DNA of 64,000 nucleotides, taken from positions 64,001 through 128,000 of the IMG/VR virus record IMGVR_UViG_3300005077_000003, one strand, 5' to 3'. Positions 3,135 through 19,243 of the stretch are shown one piece after another. A program made the translations under genes and the position numbers. How positions within the stretch are numbered: position 1 is the first letter of the stretch; the number at the start of each line of letters is the position of its first letter. Below the pieces are notes generated by a model, which saw only the letters and a list, made by a program, of their open reading frames with translations, was not told the origin of the DNA and did no database searches. This stretch comes from a virus.

Positions 3135-4547
3135 ATGGCTAAAAAAATAAATTTAGATACACAAGATATCGACCTTACTTGCTTTGATGAGAATCAACAG
3201 AAAGTAGTTCTGCAATTAGCACAAAAAATTGCAGATCAAGTAACCGAGGTTAACGACGATAGCCAAGAATATCTTGATATGCCTGTTGAGCATCAAGCAT
3301 TAATTGCTAAAGATGCCCGCAAAGCTAAGAAGATGACTGAGCTATGGAAATCAGGCGGCTATATTCCAGGTCTTCGTGACAGAGTAACTTTCAAAGAGTT
3401 TGCTGGTCACTCACAGAAATGGGATGAGCAATTCCAGCGCGAAGCTGCAGATGCTGGTTTTACTAGTACTGATCATCCAATCCTCATTGCTCGTACTATC
3501 TCCGAAGTAGTAAAAGAAGCTGTTGAACCAAATATAACACTTACCCCACTGCTTCAGCGCATTAACTACTCTCACGGTACAACCCTAACTTTCCCCGCTA
3601 TGGGCGCTTTCCCAGCAGCTGATATCGCGGAAGGTATGGAATACCCAGAGAGATCTATCGACTTCGCAGGGCAAACCGTAGCGACTATTGGGAAGAGCGG
3701 TGTCGCAGTCAAGATGACTGAGGAAATGATCCGCTACTCTCAATATGATGTTATGAGTATGAACCTTCGCGCAGCTGGTAGAGCACTTATCCGCTGGAAA
3801 GAAAGCAAGGTTGCAAGTATGATTACAACCAATGCGGGTGGAAGTAATACTATATTTGATAACACATCTGCTATTTATCCTTCAACTACTGGTCGTGATG
3901 CAGGAGGTACCTACAATGGCACCTTAACGCTAGATGACCTGTTTAAGGCATATGCTGAAATGATCAATAGGGGCTACAACCCCAATACTTTGATCATGAA
4001 CCCATTTGGATGGCAGATCTTTGCTGATGAAGCAATAGCTCGCGCATTTGGTTTCATTAACGGCCTTGCTATGTGGCAGCAGCTACAAGGCTCTCCAGCT
4101 CAAGTAGGCGCCTTTAGTGGTCCTTCACCACTACTTTCACAAAGTCAGCCAACTAGCCCACAGAACCTTGCTACTACATTCACCAACGTACCAACCCAAT
4201 TCCCAGTTGCATTTAATATCATAGTTAGCCCATTTGTGGACTATAACGCCACTAACGGCACTACTGATCTAATTCTTTGCGACAGAAATGAACTTGGTAT
4301 TATAGTAGTTGATGAGGAAGTTACTACAGACGAGTTCAAGGACCCAGCACGCGATATTTACAAAGTAAAACTCCGCGAGCGTTATGGTCTGGCTTCTCTA
4401 AACAACGGTTCTGGTACTGGTCTAATTAAGGCCGTCCACCTGAAGCGCGGTTTTGACTTCAGCCGTAGTCTACAGGCTACTATAGCTTCTACAGGACTTG
4501 GTTCACCACTGACTGGTGATGAAACTAACTATTCAGTAATTTCTTAG
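3135..4547 (+). CDS. Major capsid protein (HK97 fold)
   Basis: Typical motifs: ISEVVKEAVEP...LLQRINY, AADIAEGMEYPE, IGKSGVAVKMTEEMIRYSQYDVM...AAGRALIRWKE, P(N)TLIMNP, KVKLRERYG. Strong SD GGAGGT at 3122-3127. Confidence 0.92.
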   Translation: MAKKINLDTQDIDLTCFDENQQKVVLQLAQKIADQVTEVNDDSQEYLDMPVEHQALIAKDARKAKKMTELWKSGGYIPGLRDRVTFKEFAGHSQKWDEQFQREAADAGFTSTDHPILIARTISEVVKEAVEPNITLTPLLQRINYSHGTTLTFPAMGAFPAADIAEGMEYPERSIDFAGQTVATIGKSGVAVKMTEEMIRYSQYDVMSMNLRAAGRALIRWKESKVASMITTNAGGSNTIFDNTSAIYPSTTGRDAGGTYNGTLTLDDLFKAYAEMINRGYNPNTLIMNPFGWQIFADEAIARAFGFINGLAMWQQLQGSPAQVGAFSGPSPLLSQSQPTSPQNLATTFTNVPTQFPVAFNIIVSPFVDYNATNGTTDLILCDRNELGIIVVDEEVTTDEFKDPARDIYKVKLRERYGLASLNNGSGTGLIKAVHLKRGFDFSRSLQATIASTGLGSPLTGDETNYSVIS

Positions 4548-8980: not shown

Positions 8981-10510
8981 ATGGCTTATCCGCATCTTCC
9001 TGGAGTTACGCTAAACTTAGCTGACCTAGGACTTAAGATTGCGCCACCGCCTGCTGGTCCTAAAGTAACTTTACTTGGTGTTACATGCAATACTGGAGTT
9101 CCACTACTAGAGCCATTATCAGTAACCAACGTAGGTAAAACTATTAATGCTCTATGGGCTTCTGGTGCTACATCATCATTAACATTCCCAAGTGAACTTG
9201 CTTTAGCGGTAGAAGAAGCATCCGCTGCTGGCGCTGAAAACATTGAAATATTAGTCATTGCCAATCCAACTGGCAATGATTATGACTATTGGATTGATCC
9301 AACAAGTGCTGTTGGACGATCTGCGCGCTTCTCGGCGCTTAGTGGAGCATATGATGTATTGCTTCAATCCAACGTAGACGTTGTTCATCCAGTAAATGCC
9401 TGGATTGATAATCCCGGTAGCACTATTAGATTTGGGAGCCAACTAGCTAATTTCTGTCACCAAAAATCAAAAGAGTTTGATAATACTTGTGTTGGAGTTC
9501 TTCCAATGATGACTCCAGTAGAGTGGGCTCAAACTATGACTGGCAGAATAACCGGTGGGGGTTTTAGCTTCTCTGCCACAGTTTCTGGAGAAATGTCGGA
9601 TGTTACTGGTGCAGCAGATAGATATTTTGGTTCTGCTTCAAGTGCACTAGTAACAGAATGGGCAAAATATGCTTCAAATGTTTCTGCAGATCCAACTTGC
9701 TATTATACTCCTGAATTCTCAGGTTACTTAGCAGGCTCTGAAGATACTACTAATACTTATTATCCAACAAACTATGAAAACGAAGCTACTGCAGTTAACT
9801 CTGCTTACTGGACATACTGGCAGGCGGTTGATGCTGATGGTACTGCAGCTACAGACCAAAAGGGAAATAAAGTTGACGCAGGCAGAAGAGTGTGCGTATT
9901 TGGATGCCCAGTAGTTACTAACGGTACTCAAACATCATTGCTCGCGGCTGGAGTTGGAGCATCGTTAACTAATACTGTTTATAACACCAATGGCGCTGCT
10001 GCATATGCTGCTAGAATAACTACACTAGCACCACAGTCTGCAACTACCAATAAACCAATTTACAACCTAACTTATTCGCGTCCTCTTTCTGGTTCGCAAG
10101 CTAATAAACTTGCAGGAAGACGTATTACCACCATGCACAATAGAGCCAATGGCTTCGTTGTTACTAGTGGTATAACTGGCGCCCATAACGTTAGCAAGTA
10201 TGTAAGATCTGACTTCGTAAGACTAACCACGATTAGAATCGTTGACTCAGTCGTTAACCTGACCAGATCAGTATCTGACAAATATATTGGCGAGCCCAAT
10301 ACTGCAACAGCACGTAATGCGCTATACAATGACATAGAAAAATACCTGAAGCAGATGCGCGTTGCAAATGCATTAAGAGGTTGGACTATGTATATTTCTT
10401 CTTCACCAGATCAACAAGTACTAGGTGAAGCTACCATTGACCTTACCTTAGTCCCAGCATTTGAACTTGTTAAGATCGAATGCAACATAGCCCTCGCTAA
10501 GAGCGTATAA
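8981..10510 (+). CDS. Contractile tail sheath protein
   Basis: N-terminal MAYPHLPGVTLNLAD; C-terminal sheath domain SQANKLAGRRIT...VVTSGIT...LTTIRIVD...KYIGEPN...IDLTLVPAFELVKI; SD GGAGGT at 8970-8975. Confidence 0.92.
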   Translation: MAYPHLPGVTLNLADLGLKIAPPPAGPKVTLLGVTCNTGVPLLEPLSVTNVGKTINALWASGATSSLTFPSELALAVEEASAAGAENIEILVIANPTGNDYDYWIDPTSAVGRSARFSALSGAYDVLLQSNVDVVHPVNAWIDNPGSTIRFGSQLANFCHQKSKEFDNTCVGVLPMMTPVEWAQTMTGRITGGGFSFSATVSGEMSDVTGAADRYFGSASSALVTEWAKYASNVSADPTCYYTPEFSGYLAGSEDTTNTYYPTNYENEATAVNSAYWTYWQAVDADGTAATDQKGNKVDAGRRVCVFGCPVVTNGTQTSLLAAGVGASLTNTVYNTNGAAAYAARITTLAPQSATTNKPIYNLTYSRPLSGSQANKLAGRRITTMHNRANGFVVTSGITGAHNVSKYVRSDFVRLTTIRIVDSVVNLTRSVSDKYIGEPNTATARNALYNDIEKYLKQMRVANALRGWTMYISSSPDQQVLGEATIDLTLVPAFELVKIECNIALAKSV

Positions 10511-10523
10511 GGAGGATTGAACT

Positions 10524-11195
10524 ATGGCTAGTACATTAGATAGTTATACTAAGAGCTATAACTCATTCTCTGGTGCTGATATGGTTGTAACCTTCGGTAA
10601 ATATATTATCGGAGAGCTACAGGGTATATCATATACAATACAAAGAGAAAAGGCTCCACAGTATGTACTAGGTCAATCTGACCCAGTATCATTTTCAAGA
10701 GGGAAGCGCGGGATAGCAGGTTCTTGTGTATTCCTGGTATTTGACCGGTCTGCATTACTTGATGCGTTCCAGGATACGCCATTCTTAGCATGGGAGCATG
10801 AATTTGCTGCACTCGTATCCGATCCAATAGTAAGTGCGCCCGTCCTGATAACAGCAGGATTAAGCAGTGCTTCTTCTGGGTATGGTCAACCTCAAACCGC
10901 CAACTCTTTTGCGGTTGCTAATTCAATTCAAATTAGCAAAATACTTGCGCGCCCCGCTTACCATGACCAAGTATTACCATTTGAAATAGTGGTTACTGGT
11001 GCAAACGAGTATGGTGCTACAGCATCCATGAAAATACACGGTGTCGAAGTCATCAATGTCGGCTCCGGGTTCTCAATTGATGATATGCAAATTGATGAAG
11101 CTTGTACTTGGATAGCCAAGGGTATTACCAACTGGCGTCCAGGAATACAAATACATATTCCTAACTATACTCTACCTACTACTATCGCTGGCTAG
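10524..11195 (+). CDS. Tail tube protein
   Basis: Follows the sheath gene. SFSGADMVVTF...GELQGISYTIQREKAPQYVLG...SFSRGKRGIAGSCVF and IHGVEVINVGSGFSIDD are tube-fold motifs. SD AAGGAGG at 10509-10515. Confidence 0.88.
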   Translation: MASTLDSYTKSYNSFSGADMVVTFGKYIIGELQGISYTIQREKAPQYVLGQSDPVSFSRGKRGIAGSCVFLVFDRSALLDAFQDTPFLAWEHEFAALVSDPIVSAPVLITAGLSSASSGYGQPQTANSFAVANSIQISKILARPAYHDQVLPFEIVVTGANEYGATASMKIHGVEVINVGSGFSIDDMQIDEACTWIAKGITNWRPGIQIHIPNYTLPTTIAG

Positions 11196-11247: not shown

Positions 11248-12141
11248 ATGCCTTTATTTGATCCACAAACAGTTTTAGGTAAAGAAAAAGTATCATTTTC
11301 TGGTACTGATGTTAGCGTTGTATTTAGTATTCATGGCAGTATGCCATCGTACATAGCAGATAAGCGATACTTTAGATCAGCACAATTACAAACTATATCT
11401 TTAACTTCAGCAGCATCATTATTCCCAGTTCGCAGATGCGGAGAAGCATCTGCCACAACGCTCACAAAGGGTGCGCGTACGGTTGCGGGTTCTATGGTAT
11501 TTACCATACTAGGACAAGATCCTTTACAAGAAATATTTTCTATTGATGCAATAAAATCTGCAGCCAGAACAGATAGTTTATGGCACATAGATCAAATGCC
11601 ACCAATAGACTGTTTGCTAATATTTGCTACTGAAACTGGCGGTAGAGGATTACAAGTAATCCAAAACATGCAAATATCTAACTGGGGAGAAGTAGTAAGT
11701 ATTGATGACATGTATATTGAATCTAGTTATACTTTTATTGCTGAACATATAACTCCATTTTTGTCTATGGATCTTATGTCAGCAAGCGGCACCAGTAGTA
11801 ATAGGGTTGCTAAAGTATTAGAAGATAGAATGTCAGACATAAGATCTAATGCATTAACCCCAGATGATGCAGCTATAACTGCGATAGGTATTTCTCAGAA
11901 AGAAATAATAGATAAGTATGGATGGCATGCGCCTACTATTATGGCACAACTTGCTAAGGATGAATTAAAATTAAGAGCAGGCAAAGCTCTTAATTTAATG
12001 GATATAGGAGTCTCAAGACTTATAGATAATATAGAAACAGGTACAACAAAAGCTGGAGAAGTATATGCAATATGGACAACAGCACCAGAAATACCTTCAA
12101 CAATATTTGATCTTACTAATTTAAAATATGTCACGCGCTAG
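11248..12141 (+). CDS. Tube-fold paralog (tube initiator / baseplate tube-like protein)
   Basis: SFSGTDVSVVF, LQTISL...FPVRRCG...TKGARTVAGSMVF and WGEVVSIDDMYIESSYTFIA align by eye with the tube protein. Confidence 0.7.
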   Translation: MPLFDPQTVLGKEKVSFSGTDVSVVFSIHGSMPSYIADKRYFRSAQLQTISLTSAASLFPVRRCGEASATTLTKGARTVAGSMVFTILGQDPLQEIFSIDAIKSAARTDSLWHIDQMPPIDCLLIFATETGGRGLQVIQNMQISNWGEVVSIDDMYIESSYTFIAEHITPFLSMDLMSASGTSSNRVAKVLEDRMSDIRSNALTPDDAAITAIGISQKEIIDKYGWHAPTIMAQLAKDELKLRAGKALNLMDIGVSRLIDNIETGTTKAGEVYAIWTTAPEIPSTIFDLTNLKYVTR

Positions 12142-12883
12142 GCATTATCCAACACCAATAACTACTACCTTTTACATAGGGCAGTATTTAATTGATGATG
12201 TATATAGGGTTGATTTTACAAGAAAAGTAACTCATCAACCAATATGGGGGTATGCCAGTAAACAATATGATTTTATTGCCAAAGGTAGAGAAATAGTAAC
12301 TGGCAATATTATAATTAACTTTAGGTATCCAGGCTATCTGACTAATGCCATTAAAGTAGCAACTCAAGATTCTGATACAAATAAAGTTCTAGTTAAATCT
12401 GGAATTAAAAAGGATTCAAAACAATCACTTGGAAACCTACTTGATGATATACACAATGTTAATAGTATTTCATCGGTAATGGAAAAAATAAGCAATATAT
12501 TGCTTGGCACTAAAATAAATAATTCGCAACAAGAGAATACCGCATCTCTTAGTAATATAAATGAAATAAACGAAACATATAATGAACTAAAAAAATCTTT
12601 AGTTGAGCGACATACTAAACAGTTTTCAAAACTCGATACTGGCGTTAAGCACTTAGAATCTCCATTATCAATAGAACTTCCTTTATTTGATCTTGAAATC
12701 CAGTATGGTTTCCAAGGAGTATCTGGTGGGTGGAGAAGAATATTTAAAGATATAACACTGGTTGGAGAGTCGCAAGTAATACAAGCAGGGGGAGATGGCA
12801 GCGGTATGGGTAGTAGTGCACAATGTTTATTAGAAGCATACCCATTTTTTGCATCTAGTACAATAGTTAAAAGGACAGTATAA
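12128..12883 (+). CDS. Second tube-fold paralog
   Basis: FYIGQYLIDDVYRVDFTRKVTHQPIWGYASKQYDFIAKGREIVTGNIIINF matches the tube-fold pattern (YI-G...P-x2-G...G-x-R-x2-G-x3-F). Confidence 0.6.
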   Translation: MSRARHYPTPITTTFYIGQYLIDDVYRVDFTRKVTHQPIWGYASKQYDFIAKGREIVTGNIIINFRYPGYLTNAIKVATQDSDTNKVLVKSGIKKDSKQSLGNLLDDIHNVNSISSVMEKISNILLGTKINNSQQENTASLSNINEINETYNELKKSLVERHTKQFSKLDTGVKHLESPLSIELPLFDLEIQYGFQGVSGGWRRIFKDITLVGESQVIQAGGDGSGMGSSAQCLLEAYPFFASSTIVKRTV

Positions 12884-13239: not shown

Positions 13240-13874
13240 TGGAAAACAATGTACTGGATAAGTACACAGAGCTAATACTTCAAGGTAACAAAGACATATT
13301 TATTACCGAACTCGGGGGCTTGTCATTTATTTGCAAGCCCCTTACTTATTATCAGTATAAGCTTTGTTTAGATATAGAAAAGAATGTGGGCGCACCAGAT
13401 TCTAATGAAGCCATTCTAAAATTATCAATTATATTTCCAGAAAGGAATGAGTTAGAAAATTGGATAGATAGCACAAACGCCTGTTTCCCAGATATATTAG
13501 CAGATAAAATCCTAGCTAAATCTAGTTTTAAAAGCCAAGAAGATATATATAGCTTATATCTTTCATCCAGGGATGATGTTGAAAAAGACTTTATTGGCTT
13601 AGCACAAATATATATTTGCACCGCATTTAAGGCCATATCGCCAGCAGATATAGATAAAATGCCAATGAAAGATATTATGTGCCTACTAGTAAAGGCAGAA
13701 GAAGCTTTAGGTAAAAAGATTAATATAGAAGAATTATTTAATATAGAATCAGAAGGTAAACAAAAAATACCTATTCCTCCAGGAATGGAGTCAACTGCTT
13801 TTGATCCTTTCTCTAAAGAGTATATGTTAGATCCAGATAATGCGAGCCCAATACCACCAGAGGCATTCAGATAA
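13239..13874 (+). CDS. Tail assembly chaperone, second paralog
   Basis: FICKPLTYYQY...EAILKLSII...LADKILAKSSF parallels the previous ORF; TAATG-coupled. Confidence 0.55.
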   Translation: MENNVLDKYTELILQGNKDIFITELGGLSFICKPLTYYQYKLCLDIEKNVGAPDSNEAILKLSIIFPERNELENWIDSTNACFPDILADKILAKSSFKSQEDIYSLYLSSRDDVEKDFIGLAQIYICTAFKAISPADIDKMPMKDIMCLLVKAEEALGKKINIEELFNIESEGKQKIPIPPGMESTAFDPFSKEYMLDPDNASPIPPEAFR

Positions 13875-15322
13875 TGGCCAGGCAAGGAGAAGAGCCTAGG
13901 TATACTGGTCCACGCGAGGGTGAACTAGAAGCCTATAATGCAGAAGTAGATCAGGCCAATGAGCGTGATGCTAGTTGGCTAGCCAAAATAGCTATAATAG
14001 GTTTTGGTACACACGTACTAGGAAGGGCAGTTGGGCGAAATATAATTGCTGATATTATCCACACTGGTGGATTAATGTCCAAGTGGGCTGGCGGCCTCTA
14101 TAAGAGAAAAGGCAAATCTTTATTAAGACCAGAAGTATACAATAGAGTTGCTAGGGCTATTGATGATAATAGTGGCGTTTCTGGTGAGGTAATAAAAAGA
14201 ACCTGGGAAGGTTCAAACCTAGAAGAAATAGAGGGCGTAAGAAGGCTAATAGAGATGTCCTCTATTATAGGGGATCCTAAAAATATTACTTCCCGCCCTA
14301 GACTAATAGAGTTTTTTAAAGAAGAGCTCGCCAGAGATGCGCGGGTTCTTCAAAGACCAACACCTTTACAAAAAGAAATGTCGCATAGCCTAGATAGGCT
14401 AACCTTTGGTGACATTCTAGAAAATGAATCATATTTCTTTAGACCAAAAGAAATAGCAAAGTCATACCAAATAGAATCTATTAATCTTGCAATAGATCAA
14501 GGGCTTATAACAAAAGAAACAGTAGTAGGACCAAAACTATTTAAGCGCCTCGATAAACAAGGCAAGTTTGCATCACTAATAGATTTAAGACTTACTGATC
14601 CAAGATATGCACTTGAAAGTGCAGCTAAAATAGTTGGCGACGTAGCTGGTATATTTAGGGGTTTCGCGTCTTTATTTGGTAATGCCAGAACATTAGCTGA
14701 ACTACCAAGCGAGCATCCAGGTGGACCGCTAAGGGTATTTATAAAAGGACAAGCCGATTCTGCCGTAGCACCGCGCAGACCAACAATAAAAGGTCCATGG
14801 AATGATGCAGATGTATTAGCTTTTGATATAGAGACAAACAAAGCCAAAGCAATTAATGATGTAACAAAATTGCATATGGTTTCTATCGCCGCCAAAGAGA
14901 AGGGCGGAGCATGGAAGAGCTATACATTCTGGGATGATACTGCAGTAACCCACCCTGATGTTGTAAGATCTGGCAGTATACAAGACGCCTTAGATATACT
15001 AGAGGCTCATAAGGGTACATTATTTGGCCATAAGATTTTAGATTTTGACTTACCCGTAATTAAAAACTTACGCGGTGGGCTTACTATAGAAAGCGGCGCA
15101 GAAATAAGGGATACACTAGAAATGTCCCACGTTGCTTTTGGTACCTTTAAATCTGGAAAGCTACGCGAGATAGACAGACTAGCAGCTATAGGAAAAGAAC
15201 AAGAGTTCTCTGGACAAGTTCTTCATAAAATACCAAGCGAAATGAGGGGGAGACATTCCCTAGAAGCTTGGGGGCAAAGGCTTGGTAAAACTGCAAAACT
15301 GGAATATAAGGGCGACTGGTAA
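13874..15322 (+). CDS. N-terminal part of a giant tape-measure-region protein; contains ExoI and ExoII of a PolA/T7-type 3'-5' exonuclease
   Basis: LAFDIETN (14816-14839), GHKILDFDLPVI, IRDTLEMS, RHSLEAWGQRLG...EYKGDW. Ends at TAA 15320-15322, in frame with the next ORF. Confidence 0.75.
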   Translation: MARQGEEPRYTGPREGELEAYNAEVDQANERDASWLAKIAIIGFGTHVLGRAVGRNIIADIIHTGGLMSKWAGGLYKRKGKSLLRPEVYNRVARAIDDNSGVSGEVIKRTWEGSNLEEIEGVRRLIEMSSIIGDPKNITSRPRLIEFFKEELARDARVLQRPTPLQKEMSHSLDRLTFGDILENESYFFRPKEIAKSYQIESINLAIDQGLITKETVVGPKLFKRLDKQGKFASLIDLRLTDPRYALESAAKIVGDVAGIFRGFASLFGNARTLAELPSEHPGGPLRVFIKGQADSAVAPRRPTIKGPWNDADVLAFDIETNKAKAINDVTKLHMVSIAAKEKGGAWKSYTFWDDTAVTHPDVVRSGSIQDALDILEAHKGTLFGHKILDFDLPVIKNLRGGLTIESGAEIRDTLEMSHVAFGTFKSGKLREIDRLAAIGKEQEFSGQVLHKIPSEMRGRHSLEAWGQRLGKTAKLEYKGDW

Positions 15323-15337
15323 GCCCTAACGCCAGAT

Positions 15338-18300
15338 ATGCTTAAGTATGGATCGCATGATCCAGTAGTAACTGGTGACCTATTTGACTTTCTCAAAACA
15401 CTAGCTAAACCAACACATAAAGAAGTAAGCGCCACTGCTTCTATTGCTAAAAAAGCAGAAGACATTAAAGGAAGTGTCGGTAGAGTATATGAGTTTGTTG
15501 GTGATGAGCCTCCAAAACTAGTAGAATCTGGTGTTCGTCTTGGAGAAACCGGAGATATATTGTTCAAGCCTTCTGTTCTTAGAAAGCTCCATAGAGAAGG
15601 CAAATTAGAATCTATTTATACAAAACCCGGCCCTAATGCTACTTGGCTCCAAAAGTTACAACACAAGGCTGGTATAGGACCAGAATTCCAAGAGCGACCT
15701 GGTGGCTTTGTTCAAACACTATTAAGAGCAGTTAGGTCTATAAAGGCAATACATACTGGTGAAGCAAAGTTTGCTGGTAAAAGATATAAATCTAGTCCAA
15801 GCTCATTATTAAACGTTGTAGCTGGCAGCACAATACCACTAGAGGAAAGACTGCCTGAATATATTTCTCGTGGTAAATATTATAAACAAGCCGGTGAGCC
15901 AATAAAACCCGGGTTCTTTGATAGGATCAAAGCATACTTAGGGATATCTGAAGACGTAGATATAGTAAAAGCATCAGCTTTTGAGCCAGGTCGTATGCAA
16001 ATAGAAGCAGCAGATCTGCTAATCCCTCCAAAAACAGGTGGATTAAAACCACTTACTAAATCAGCATATTCTGCTACAGAAAAAACAATTGGCCCAACTG
16101 GAACGTTATCAGCCAGAAGAACTTCAGAATTTTATACTTCTAGTGCCAATCCTATAGATAAGCTATATGATTTTGCAAACTATTTAACAATAAGATTAAA
16201 TACATTAGCTAGCAGCCAAATGCTTGGCATAGGATACCGCGCATCAGGTAGCCTTACTGCTAATGCATTAAGATTGGCGGCAATCCCAGCAATATATATA
16301 GCTGGTACTGAAGCAATAAAATATGCTGATTATGAAATAGGCGAGCTAACAGGAGTCCGCCCATCATTCTTGGTATCAGATTTATATACTAAAGCTAGAG
16401 TACTACAACAGCAAGCAAGAGAAACCACTGGAATACGTAAAGGGGCAGAGACATTTGAGCTTACTTTCCCAGGCATAAGTGCCGGCCTAGCAGGAACAGG
16501 GCTAGCAGCCTTAGGCGCATTTGCTACCCTAAAAGGCACTGGATCATTTAAAGCCGCAGCTGCTGCTGGCGCCGCCATTTATTCATTGATAGGCGGCCCA
16601 GATGTAGCTCAAAAGCCAAAAGAATTAGAAGAGGAATATGAAGGCATACGCAAAGTGCCAGTAAGGTCATCTTCCTATTGGTTACTGGGATACGCTCCTT
16701 TTATTGGCGGCCACATAACCCACCATGAGCCAAGTTGGTATGTAAAACACAAATCGCAAGCGTATAAAACAAATATATATGGATCTGAAAAAGAATATTG
16801 GTCCAGCGGCACATTCTTACCAACGCCACAAAATTGGTTTGGTTTAAAAAATATAATTGATCCATATAAATTAGAAAGGGAAAACTACTACAGAAGGCCA
16901 TACCCTACTACTGCTGGCTGGGGAGAAGAGTTCCCAATTATTGGCCCATTAGTAGCAGATACAATAGGTGAGATATTTAAGCCTCGTGTAAGAATGCATG
17001 AGGAAGACAACCAACGTGTTGTAATAAGCAACTTACAACAAAGAGGTGCGCCAAAAGATATTGCATCATATCTCGGTATACCAGAATTGCCAGTATCAAT
17101 TGTAGAATATGGCAAACCTGAAGTATTAAGAGAAAGGCTTAAAAAATATGCAAATGTCGCTTTAGAGCCTGCTGGTATATGGAAGTTTGCTTTACAATAC
17201 TTTGGTATTAGTTTTGACGAAGGATATGAGGAAGCTACTGCTTCTAATATGGGATCCATATCAAGAAGATTCTATGAAGCAAACCTGGGCGGGGCATTCG
17301 GAGAAAGTGAATTCCTTAGGCGCTTCCTACTATCTGATTATGGTAGGGCTTCAAAGTTCAACCAACAATTAAATCCAATACCAAACTATCTTCCTAGATG
17401 GCTACCTGGATCATTAAGCAACTTCGAAGAAGACAGAGCTGCATTCTATGATTTTTCTCTTGGAGATGCATATACCAAGATACAAGGCGGGGAATATAAT
17501 TTACCTGGTGTTGGATATGAAAGCTATACTCCGCTACACGGTAAAGAAGCAGAAAGAGAAGAAGAGAAAATTAAATTTACTGCTAGAGTAGTTAAAGTAG
17601 TTGACGCTGATACTGTTGATATATCAATTAATGGCGGCAGACAGCGTATACGTCTAGCAGAAACTATGGCTCCAGAGAAGAATACGACAGAAGGTCAAAT
17701 TGCTATAGCAGCAATGAAATCTTTGTTGTCTCCTGGTGACAATATAACAGTAGAAACTACAAGAGACGAATTTGATTCTGGTGAATCTCAAGGCCCTTAC
17801 GGACGGACTATCGCGCGTATTTGGAAGAATGGCCTGTCTATTAATAGGGCAATGGTAGACTCTGGACACGCTACACAAATAGATTCAAGCTATGATGCAG
17901 TAGACAGATTCTTAATACTATCCAATATAGCACCATTCTCAAGAGCTTACAAAGATGCAGAACGCCAAGTTCGCCATATGCATCTTACAGAAGATTGGCA
18001 GGCCAGGGTTAATGCTGCCTATGAAGAAAGAGAGGCAAAAGTAGATAGGTTAGGGCTAAAAAAGTACCTACAAGAAGAAGCCGAAGCAGCTAAATTAAGT
18101 CCTCAACTAAGAGTCATAAGAAGTACATATCAATCTGTACATGAGAATCTACTTTCAGAAATACCAATAGTTGGATCAAAGTTTTTCCCAAAAAGAAATC
18201 CAGTTGATTTATATAGGAAGTTTGAAGTAGAAGGATCTGGCTTTGCAAACTGGGAAGAGCCATATGAAACCATATTACGCCCAGCTATATATGATATAAT

Positions 18301-19243
18301 TGGAAACAACCCAGTAATAGCTACAGCAAAAGCAGGTGGTTTAACTTGGCTAGCATCATCCTCTATGGGTAAATGGCTAAATCCAATAAGCGCCTTAGCA
18401 TATCCAGCAAATAGAGCTGCCACAATAGCAAGTGCCGCCGCAGTAGGTGGCGCGTTGTCAACTACAAGAATGGTTGCTACCGGCAAACTGGAAGGAGGAT
18501 TTACCCCGCCTCATATTGAAGAAGAGAGAGAAGTAGAAGAATATTTTGATCAACTAAAATATTTAAAGCATAGAAACTTAGAAGAAGCCGCTAATGATGA
18601 ACAGGCATACCATGTAGCAAACTATGCTAAAAAGCAATCGCGCAAAACATTGTTATATGGTCTACATGCACTAGAAACTAAAGGAAATATATTTGCTTAT
18701 AAAGGAGCACTTAAATCTAAAGAGAGGGCTTACTTTGAGGCCTTTGTAGAGGCTCCAGAAGAGGACAGGAGTGACATCCTATCAATGACCCCTGACCATA
18801 TGAAACGCGCGCTGGAAGCAATATGGGACCGCCAGCGTAAAGATAGACCGCCCGTAGAAGAACAGGCAGAACAATACTGGGATAAACATGCTATGCCAAA
18901 GCCGACGTGGATAGGTTGGCACCCAGATATTGATGATGATGAGGTAAGAATAAAAGCTATTGAGGGTGGCATAAATGGTATTTCTGATAATTTACAAAGA
19001 TTTGGTTATTTCCCCTCACAAAGAAGAGAAGTAAAAGCCAGATTTGGCTACCTTACTTCGCCAGTAGATGATATACATCCAGCAAGTAAAACATTTGAAT
19101 TACCATGGAAAGTTAAGAAGAGAGGAGGAAATATACTTAGCGAGTTCAATTTTGGTGCTGGCGCTGCAATTAATTTATCTAATATTAATATATCAGATGA
19201 TCGCAGTGAAGAGATAGCCTATTTTGCTAATTATATTAGATAA
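15338..19243 (+). CDS. C-terminal part of the giant tape-measure-like protein; starts with ExoIII and contains an inserted thermonuclease (SNase) domain
   Basis: In frame with 13874..15322 across one TAA. Begins (ALTPD)MLKYGSHDPVVT. Has Ala/Gly-rich hydrophobic stretches typical of tape-measure proteins and an SNase-like segment at about 17570-17880. Confidence 0.7.
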   Translation: MLKYGSHDPVVTGDLFDFLKTLAKPTHKEVSATASIAKKAEDIKGSVGRVYEFVGDEPPKLVESGVRLGETGDILFKPSVLRKLHREGKLESIYTKPGPNATWLQKLQHKAGIGPEFQERPGGFVQTLLRAVRSIKAIHTGEAKFAGKRYKSSPSSLLNVVAGSTIPLEERLPEYISRGKYYKQAGEPIKPGFFDRIKAYLGISEDVDIVKASAFEPGRMQIEAADLLIPPKTGGLKPLTKSAYSATEKTIGPTGTLSARRTSEFYTSSANPIDKLYDFANYLTIRLNTLASSQMLGIGYRASGSLTANALRLAAIPAIYIAGTEAIKYADYEIGELTGVRPSFLVSDLYTKARVLQQQARETTGIRKGAETFELTFPGISAGLAGTGLAALGAFATLKGTGSFKAAAAAGAAIYSLIGGPDVAQKPKELEEEYEGIRKVPVRSSSYWLLGYAPFIGGHITHHEPSWYVKHKSQAYKTNIYGSEKEYWSSGTFLPTPQNWFGLKNIIDPYKLERENYYRRPYPTTAGWGEEFPIIGPLVADTIGEIFKPRVRMHEEDNQRVVISNLQQRGAPKDIASYLGIPELPVSIVEYGKPEVLRERLKKYANVALEPAGIWKFALQYFGISFDEGYEEATASNMGSISRRFYEANLGGAFGESEFLRRFLLSDYGRASKFNQQLNPIPNYLPRWLPGSLSNFEEDRAAFYDFSLGDAYTKIQGGEYNLPGVGYESYTPLHGKEAEREEEKIKFTARVVKVVDADTVDISINGGRQRIRLAETMAPEKNTTEGQIAIAAMKSLLSPGDNITVETTRDEFDSGESQGPYGRTIARIWKNGLSINRAMVDSGHATQIDSSYDAVDRFLILSNIAPFSRAYKDAERQVRHMHLTEDWQARVNAAYEEREAKVDRLGLKKYLQEEAEAAKLSPQLRVIRSTYQSVHENLLSEIPIVGSKFFPKRNPVDLYRKFEVEGSGFANWEEPYETILRPAIYDIIGNNPVIATAKAGGLTWLASSSMGKWLNPISALAYPANRAATIASAAAVGGALSTTRMVATGKLEGGFTPPHIEEEREVEEYFDQLKYLKHRNLEEAANDEQAYHVANYAKKQSRKTLLYGLHALETKGNIFAYKGALKSKERAYFEAFVEAPEEDRSDILSMTPDHMKRALEAIWDRQRKDRPPVEEQAEQYWDKHAMPKPTWIGWHPDIDDDEVRIKAIEGGINGISDNLQRFGYFPSQRREVKARFGYLTSPVDDIHPASKTFELPWKVKKRGGNILSEFNFGAGAAINLSNINISDDRSEEIAYFANYIR

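Follow-up and report, generated by a model that had tools for sequence, protein, structure and literature searches.

Why should an exonuclease of the kind found in the DNA polymerase of phage T7 lie among the tail genes of another phage, and why should an in-frame stop codon fall inside it? The question is raised by a 64,000-nucleotide stretch of the IMG/VR record IMGVR_UViG_3300005077_000003 (hereafter the window, always at its full length), i.e., bases 64001-128000 of a single virus contig of 177,611 bp (36% GC, estimated completeness 92%). Two open reading frames (ORFs) of the window share one frame and are separated by a TAA and 15 nt, and the exonuclease extends over both of them. Judged from sequence comparisons, the exonuclease is a lineage-specific, in-frame insertion at the point where two modules of a conserved virion tail protein meet; this protein is the homologue of gp145 of Bacillus phage 0305phi8-36. 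The case is unusual in the type of domain inserted and in being unique, and not on account of its stop codon. The TAA itself is best read as an evolutionarily young, single-base nonsense change in a domain that appears from its sequence to have been long under selection, and as neither recoding nor an evolved split. This context had been missed by the initial annotation of the locus, which described a T7/PolA-type exonuclease cut by a stop; the exonuclease is inserted in a tail protein, and the stop splits that host protein too. The elements concerned are the following.

13874-15322, plus strand: ORF1, 482 aa, comprising the gp145-like N-terminal module and the first 190 residues of the insert, and ending in the TAA
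15338-19243, plus strand: ORF2, 1301 aa, comprising the last 48 residues of the insert and then the gp145-like C-terminal module
13874-14749, plus strand: N-terminal module of the gp145-like virion protein, aa 1-292, of which aa 36-54 are moderately hydrophobic
14750-15481, plus strand: the exonuclease insertion, 244 residues in frame, residues 293-536 of the readthrough product
15482-19243, plus strand: C-terminal module of the gp145-like virion protein; hydrophobic segments rich in Gly and Ala occur at readthrough aa 794-912
15320-15322, plus strand: the in-frame TAA, residue 191 of the insert, aligned with W161 of T7 gp5

The coordinates of the stop, the shared frame and the 15-nt gap are as the initial annotation had reported them. 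Its identification of the domain also stands: the insert is a T7/PolA-type DEDDy 3'-5' exonuclease domain, whose activity is predicted from sequence and structural model. Among profiles, PHROG 17 ('DNA polymerase') matches it at E 8.8e-13 and PHROG 403 ('DNA polymerase exonuclease subunit') at 8.9e-07, whereas Pfam PF01612 reaches 16.4 bits and stays under its cut-off of 23.6 bits, so that the profile search for an exonuclease fold succeeded with the first two families and failed with the third. In tblastn searches 876 phage records were matched, nearly all annotated as DNA polymerase, and single alignments cross the stop (query 40-254, with the stop at 208), while phmmer against the sequences of the Protein Data Bank (PDB) places three collinear segments on T7 gp5. 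An alignment of the exonuclease region with T7 gp5 and 14 database homologues recovers the motifs at the positions named for them earlier.

14825-14833, plus strand: ExoI, D-I-E, within FDIETN (D at 14825, E at 14831; these residues occur in 97% of homologues)
15029-15049, plus strand: ExoII, H-K-I-L-D-F-D, within GHKILDFD (catalytic Asp at 15047-15049, present in 100% of homologues)
15347-15361, plus strand: ExoIII, Y-G-S-H-D, within KYGSHD (Y at 15347, D at 15359), downstream of the TAA and on ORF2

A further segment of the family, HSLEAWGQRLG, is located between ExoII and the stop. The motif order is that of the T7 gp5 exonuclease (ExoI D-x-E, ExoII x-x-x-F-D, HSLEAWGxRLG, ExoIII Y-x3-D), and the five catalytic residues, collinear with D5, E7, D65, Y170 and D174 of T7 gp5 (a numbering that agrees with the T7 record), are all retained, if spread over both sides of the TAA; as the stop lies between ExoII and ExoIII, the catalytic core is not on one uninterrupted polypeptide. 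The claim of intact catalytic residues holds for these five but does not extend to two further positions, an Asn and an Asp, both of which are Lys here and to which we return below. The closest homologues of the domain are only 34-41% identical to it. An AlphaFold2 model of the 244-residue insert, built from a 34-sequence alignment with the stop read as Lys, has a mean predicted local distance difference test (pLDDT) of 83 and a predicted template modelling score (pTM) of 0.81, and in this model the domain adopts the RNase H-like DnaQ fold, its post-stop helix (insert residues 195-218) being placed with a pLDDT of ~95. In a Foldseek search with the model T7 DNA polymerase ranked first (2ajq_A, E 3.5e-8), ahead of Klenow, NrnC and the WRN exonuclease; all four matches have a probability of 1.00. 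The fold is shared with the exonuclease domain of family A polymerases (T7 gp5 residues 1 to ~190; Klenow).

Unlike in T7 DNA polymerase, no polymerase domain is attached to this exonuclease, which is instead embedded in a virion tail protein and interrupted by a TAA. PF00476 (the family A palm, fingers and thumb) has no match across the whole 177.6-kb genome, and the gene is not a DNA polymerase, the polymerase domain having been searched for and not found. The replicative polymerase of this phage is of the Pol III alpha type (PF07733, E 2.9e-87, in a 1139-aa open frame; genome 3980-4735, outside the window), as in 0305phi8-36, and neither a PolA nor a PolB domain nor a second PolA-type exonuclease was detected in the genome. 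Thus, we consider that the exonuclease domain is not a replicative proofreader.

What, then, is the protein that carries it? The source phage is an uncultured, contractile-tailed phage of 177.6 kb, distant kin of Bacillus phage 0305phi8-36, and searches with its sheath protein and with ORF2 retrieve that phage and its kin. By sequence homology ORF1 and ORF2 together are the homologue of 0305phi8-36 gp145, a large virion protein: ORF2 matches ORF145 of that phage in tblastn at 1e-14 across three pieces, the C-terminal module is homologous and the gene order around it is shared. According to the GenBank record of 0305phi8-36, ORF145 is a structural protein of the virion, as mass spectrometry showed; its gene follows those of the tail chaperonins (ORF143/144) and precedes the hypothetical tape measure (ORF146) and then the hub (ORF147). 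Presence in the virion is accordingly known for gp145 by mass spectrometry, and is presumed for its homologue in the window. Closer relatives come from metagenomes and are single chains of about 1,420-1,901 aa (P0002-P0006, P0010-P0013, P0015, P0016 and P0023 included); one of them, P0002 (1557 aa), is 51% identical to ORF2 over 96% of ORF2, and matches to the N-terminal module reach E 9.9e-45 (phmmer). The N-termini of these relatives align to residues 1-292 of ORF1 and the remainder aligns to ORF2 from about residue 49. With the exception of one frameshifted assembly that is split (L001, discussed below), the relatives examined at the junction are one polypeptide without an exonuclease, as is gp145, whereas the window has a 244-aa insertion and a stop, so that its gp145-like protein is divided by the TAA and is not a single polypeptide.

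Three observations mark the exonuclease as an insertion confined to this lineage. The conserved motifs FxGGDVF and LGxVxD, which flank the junction, are 22-23 residues apart in all nine relatives in which both were located (9/9), and 22+244 residues apart here; in the DNA of five related loci the two sides of the insertion point adjoin each other, with no exonuclease match; and ORF1, compared exhaustively by phmmer with 1.84 billion representative proteins, retrieved two disjoint sets, one matching the N-terminal module (at the N-termini of proteins of 1,420-1,900 aa) and the other the exonuclease (at the N-termini of polymerases of 600-780 aa, or in short proteins of 110-380 aa). The N-terminal module and the exonuclease were combined in none (0) of the 1.84 billion representatives. 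At the C-terminal end of the insert the last ~30 residues faintly resemble the start of the homologues' polymerase domain, a likeness which suggests that the insert is a captured fragment of a polymerase gene. Around the insert, a search for target-site duplications and flanking repeats gave short repeats at chance level only, and a search for a donor copy of the exonuclease elsewhere in the genome found none. One candidate donor (genome 30607-30996) gave a weak tblastn match only, and was rejected as it is part of a DUF4406 protein and not an exonuclease. That protein of 301 aa (genome 30442-31347, minus strand) is nucleoside 2-deoxyribosyltransferase-like (E 3.8e-28). An intein was likewise rejected by inspection, the insert beginning with Q and ending with G and having no Cys/Ser...HN signature, and an intron or other structured RNA was discarded for lack of any Rfam match.

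An insertion seen only in this genome, whose end recalls the start of an otherwise absent polymerase domain and in which two near-invariant residues have changed to Lys, might be nothing but a functionless passenger, i.e., a captured piece of a polymerase gene in which the stop is the first visible step of decay and around which only the structural modules matter. We consider this very unlikely. Even at 34-41% identity to its homologues the domain has kept the five catalytic residues and most of its core motifs, and its base composition (GC ~0.42) matches that of the host gene, which together point to long-term purifying selection; moreover, a useless insert of 732 nt would be expected to be deleted from a genome with a coding share of 91%.

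We now turn to the stop. Its alignment column is variable, being W, E, D, S, K, A or H among homologues of the exonuclease, in which the codon is thus a sense codon; no relative carrying the insertion itself was found. AAA (K), GAA (E) and TCA (S) each lie a single base from TAA. Within the exonuclease fold, the window matches 29 of the 39 columns before the stop that are conserved in at least 70% of homologues and five of the seven after it, and the five codons between the TAA and the next ATG (A-L-T-P-D) still match the family pattern. A variable column one base from sense codons, equal conservation on both sides and a consensus-like ALTPD are the grounds on which we regard the TAA as young. 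In the AlphaFold2 model the stop is predicted to fall inside the fold, just ahead of the confidently modelled ExoIII helix, and not at a domain boundary.

Could the ribosome nevertheless pass it? Genome-wide recoding, which the initial annotation had already set aside on the grounds that all three stops end real genes, is ruled out: of the 151 ORFs with 90 aa or more, most end in TAA (86, or 57%, against 39 in TGA and 26 in TAG), and the three tRNAs of the genome (Arg-tct, Leu-caa and Met-cat) include no suppressor. A translational bypass or hop was rejected as well, because homology resumes with the codon right after the stop, its frame unchanged, and because the following TGG is out of frame. 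More local readthrough of the UAA, either programmed or by a host tRNA or an unassembled phage tRNA, would make two products, one of 482 aa and one of full length, in a constant proportion. Homology does continue in frame and without a gap directly past the stop, a tRNA could be missing from a genome that is ~92% complete, and a weak RNA hairpin is predicted around the codon.

15299-15335, plus strand: weak predicted RNA hairpin, CUGG...GGGCG / GCCC...CCAG, with the UAA in the loop and the AUG just 3' of it

The significance of this hairpin is doubtful (z = -2.2; six of 200 shuffles fold equally well), and an Rfam scan of 14500-15700 gave no match and no recoding element. Against readthrough stand also the general knowledge that UAA is the least leaky stop in bacteria, the cost that an efficient suppressor would carry where TAA ends 57% of large ORFs, the lack of a suppressor tRNA among those found, and the fact that the short product would terminate inside a folded domain. 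Of the explanations weighed here, we hold this one to be the least probable.

If the TAA is obeyed, the remainder of the protein would have to be made from a restart, for which the sequence offers one likely site.

15338-15340, plus strand: ATG, the Met of the E-M-x-x-Y motif, conserved in 93% of homologues; likely re-initiation site

Between the TAA and the conserved host segment this ATG is the sole canonical start in frame, a TTG at 15560 coming next, and its Met is ancestral to the exonuclease family rather than a newly evolved start. As claimed in the initial annotation, this ATG has neither a Shine-Dalgarno sequence nor the TAATG overlap of its neighbours. Strong GGAGG sites precede the capsid, sheath and tube genes, while in most genes of the tail operon the ATG overlaps the preceding TAA, without a Shine-Dalgarno sequence (TAATG-type starts at 12883, 13239, 13874, 19243, 24663, 33681, 35752, 40182, 42221, 48529 and 59044), and translation of the operon seems to rely heavily on termination-reinitiation coupling.

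We thus propose the following. In this lineage alone, a T7-polymerase-type DEDDy exonuclease was inserted in frame where the N- and C-terminal modules of the gp145-like protein meet. From its position and composition, this protein most likely travels within the tail and is ejected upon infection. The same protein has a second nuclease-like domain.

17543-17884, plus strand: staphylococcal-nuclease-like (SNase-like) domain, ORF2 aa 736-849 (PHROG 452, E 6.6e-15)

Flanked by the conserved motifs LPGxGYE and L[SA]D[IV]AP, this domain is a second insertion, which P0002 and P0004 share and P0003, P0005 and P0006 lack. An exonuclease and an SNase-like domain in one protein would most likely represent nuclease activity delivered into the host. 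With the TAA real, translation of ORF1 would stop after 482 residues, and ribosomes would restart at the AUG at 15338, without a Shine-Dalgarno sequence and much as at the TAATG junctions of the operon, to give a second chain of 1301 aa; such re-initiation is plausible because this ATG is the only start before the conserved segment and because most genes of the operon lack Shine-Dalgarno sequences and overlap the stops of their neighbours. The structural modules would then work as two chains, so that the structural role could survive the split, and the exonuclease would either be reconstituted by non-covalent docking of its last helix or be lost. That the TAA is a real, young nonsense lesion which the phage tolerates is a reading that we hold with middling confidence.

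Docking of the last helix invites a bolder interpretation, put forward in the initial annotation as a safety switch, in which the split has evolved: ExoI and ExoII would be on the N-terminal fragment and the ExoIII helix on the C-terminal one, and the nuclease would be active only upon assembly of the two halves of the tail protein. The five catalytic residues are kept across the stop, the post-stop helix is modelled as packing on the core, which makes fragment complementation structurally conceivable, and T7-type exonucleases do exist as separate chains (PHROG 403; standalone proteins of 190-340 aa). However, the break is within the fold instead of at a domain boundary, the junction has no Shine-Dalgarno sequence, no stop/start overlap and no new start, the five untranslated codons still look coding, and the arrangement was not found in any relative and so gives no sign of conservation. 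Among the options first listed for this locus, a nonsense mutation or a sequence error is therefore favored, whereas the split as a safety switch is left unsupported by the break inside the fold, the ancestral Met and the consensus-like ALTPD; we regard an evolved two-chain nuclease as improbable. Its fullest form, in which the TAA is real and maintained, the two-chain DEDDy exonuclease forms only when the halves of a tail-internal ejection protein assemble, and together with the SNase-like domain it makes up a nuclease payload delivered by the virion, we find more doubtful still. If true, it would confine nuclease activity to the assembled or ejected particle.

Several points weigh against the tolerated young lesion that we favor, and some of them concern the DNA itself. 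The call of the TAA rests on one metagenomic contig that has been seen once. Outside it, an exact pattern across the stop with NNN at the codon had no match in viral or metagenome contig collections, protein-seeded scans with ORF1 and with the N-terminal part of the exonuclease found no close relatives, blastn against 50,697 phage records gave no match, and no relative with the insertion was found. One-off lesions of the gp145-like gene, possibly errors, do occur in public assemblies: in L001, a relative of 173.8 kb (JGI 3300075516, Ga0634391_00043), the gene is called as two proteins of 268 aa and 1169 aa, whose stop and start overlap in an ATGA ~25 codons before the position at which the window has its insertion. 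We rejected this as an evolved, tolerated split, since it traces to a one-off deletion of a single T (L001:8760-8810, GATATTGCT to GATATGCT) and the five other full-length members of its 90%-identity cluster, which come from other assemblies, are intact, with 1437 aa and the same Met; the lesion of L001 probably arose as an error of sequencing or in a sporadic mutant. No example of a viable split of the gp145-like protein was found among the relatives examined. Two further points concern the domain: the Asn that opens the ExoII pattern N-x(2-3)-[FY]-D, present in 97% of homologues, is replaced by Lys at 15032-15034, and position 137 of the insert is Lys where Asp is invariant in 33 aligned homologues. 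These two substitutions, judged by comparison with the family, may have left the activity altered or weak even before the stop arose. Finally, re-initiation 15 nt downstream without a Shine-Dalgarno sequence is an assumption for this host, if a plausible one, and delivery into the host and any nuclease activity are things that we infer.

Given such points, the TAA might simply be an artefact of sequencing or assembly, or a minority variant, while the real phage makes a continuous protein of 1,789 aa with an intact embedded exonuclease. A stop one base from the codons of residues that homologues have at that place, equal conservation before and after it, the single polypeptide of every intact relative and the example of L001 would all be expected in that case. 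However, the change at 15320 is a substitution, not an insertion or deletion in a homopolymer, and a contig that could be assembled to 177 kb seldom has substituted bases in its consensus by error; furthermore, giant ORFs that add up to ~40 kb run through the window without a break, which speaks against an error-prone assembly. We judge that the TAA is likelier to be real in the sequenced DNA than to be an artefact, the latter being unlikely but still to be reckoned with.

The surroundings of the tolerated lesion that we favor are those of a tail operon of the 0305phi8-36 kind. Upstream of ORF1 lie the following genes.

3135-4547: major capsid protein
8981-10510: tail sheath
10524-11195: tube protein
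11248-12141: tube paralogue

Downstream of ORF2 a protein of 2613 aa bears a lysin domain. The gene order of the window is that of 0305phi8-36, i.e., sheath, tube, tube paralogue, chaperones, the gp145-like gene, a gene in the tape-measure position and a hub with a lysin domain, and the gp145-like gene sits between the tail chaperones and the gene in the tape-measure position. Both members of the tube pair (10524-11195 and 11248-12141) belong to PHROG 9206, labelled 'major head protein' in PHROGs, a label that looks misleading because the pair mirrors gp140/gp141 of 0305phi8-36. Among distant homologues of the gp145-like protein two carry LAGLIDADG inteins (P0012, aa 919-1348; P0008, aa 596-942), which are unusual in a structural tail gene and which suggest that their host sites are highly conserved.

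How unusual is an exonuclease in such a place? Proteins of the tail and the tape-measure region carry cell-wall-degrading domains and, in the 0305phi8-36 lineage, occasionally a staphylococcal nuclease domain. No polymerase-type proofreading exonuclease within a protein of the tail or tape-measure region was found in the databases and literature searched. The virion proteins of the 0305phi8-36 lineage have been described as conserved scaffolds decorated with imported enzyme domains that vary among relatives, e.g., an SNase domain on the hub homologue of BtI1 and lysin domains on gp147, and import from stand-alone genes by recombination has been proposed (Hardies et al. 2007, PMC2147016). The protein of the window belongs with these, although in contrast to the cases of that study its enzyme is a DEDDy exonuclease, which is unmentioned there, and its carrier is the gp145-like protein and not the hub. 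More loosely it belongs with the polyvalent proteins injected with phage and plasmid DNA (Iyer et al. 2017, PMC5512222), which are likewise large and multidomain, with several nucleic-acid-directed enzymes, and probably co-delivered with DNA; the scaffold here, unlike theirs, is a conserved tail-internal structural protein, and a word search of that survey found neither a DEDD 3'-5' exonuclease nor an SNase domain among the components.

The stop itself is probably mundane, but it also holds a caution, as gene callers would annotate two unrelated-looking proteins from what is one structural gene. For the biology of these phages the insertion matters more: the junction between two modules of a conserved tail protein accepts an entire foreign domain, and that domain, if active, adds a 3'-5' exonuclease to the enzymes that a phage may inject ahead of its DNA, where possible roles would be attack on host DNA, the processing of DNA ends or counter-defence.

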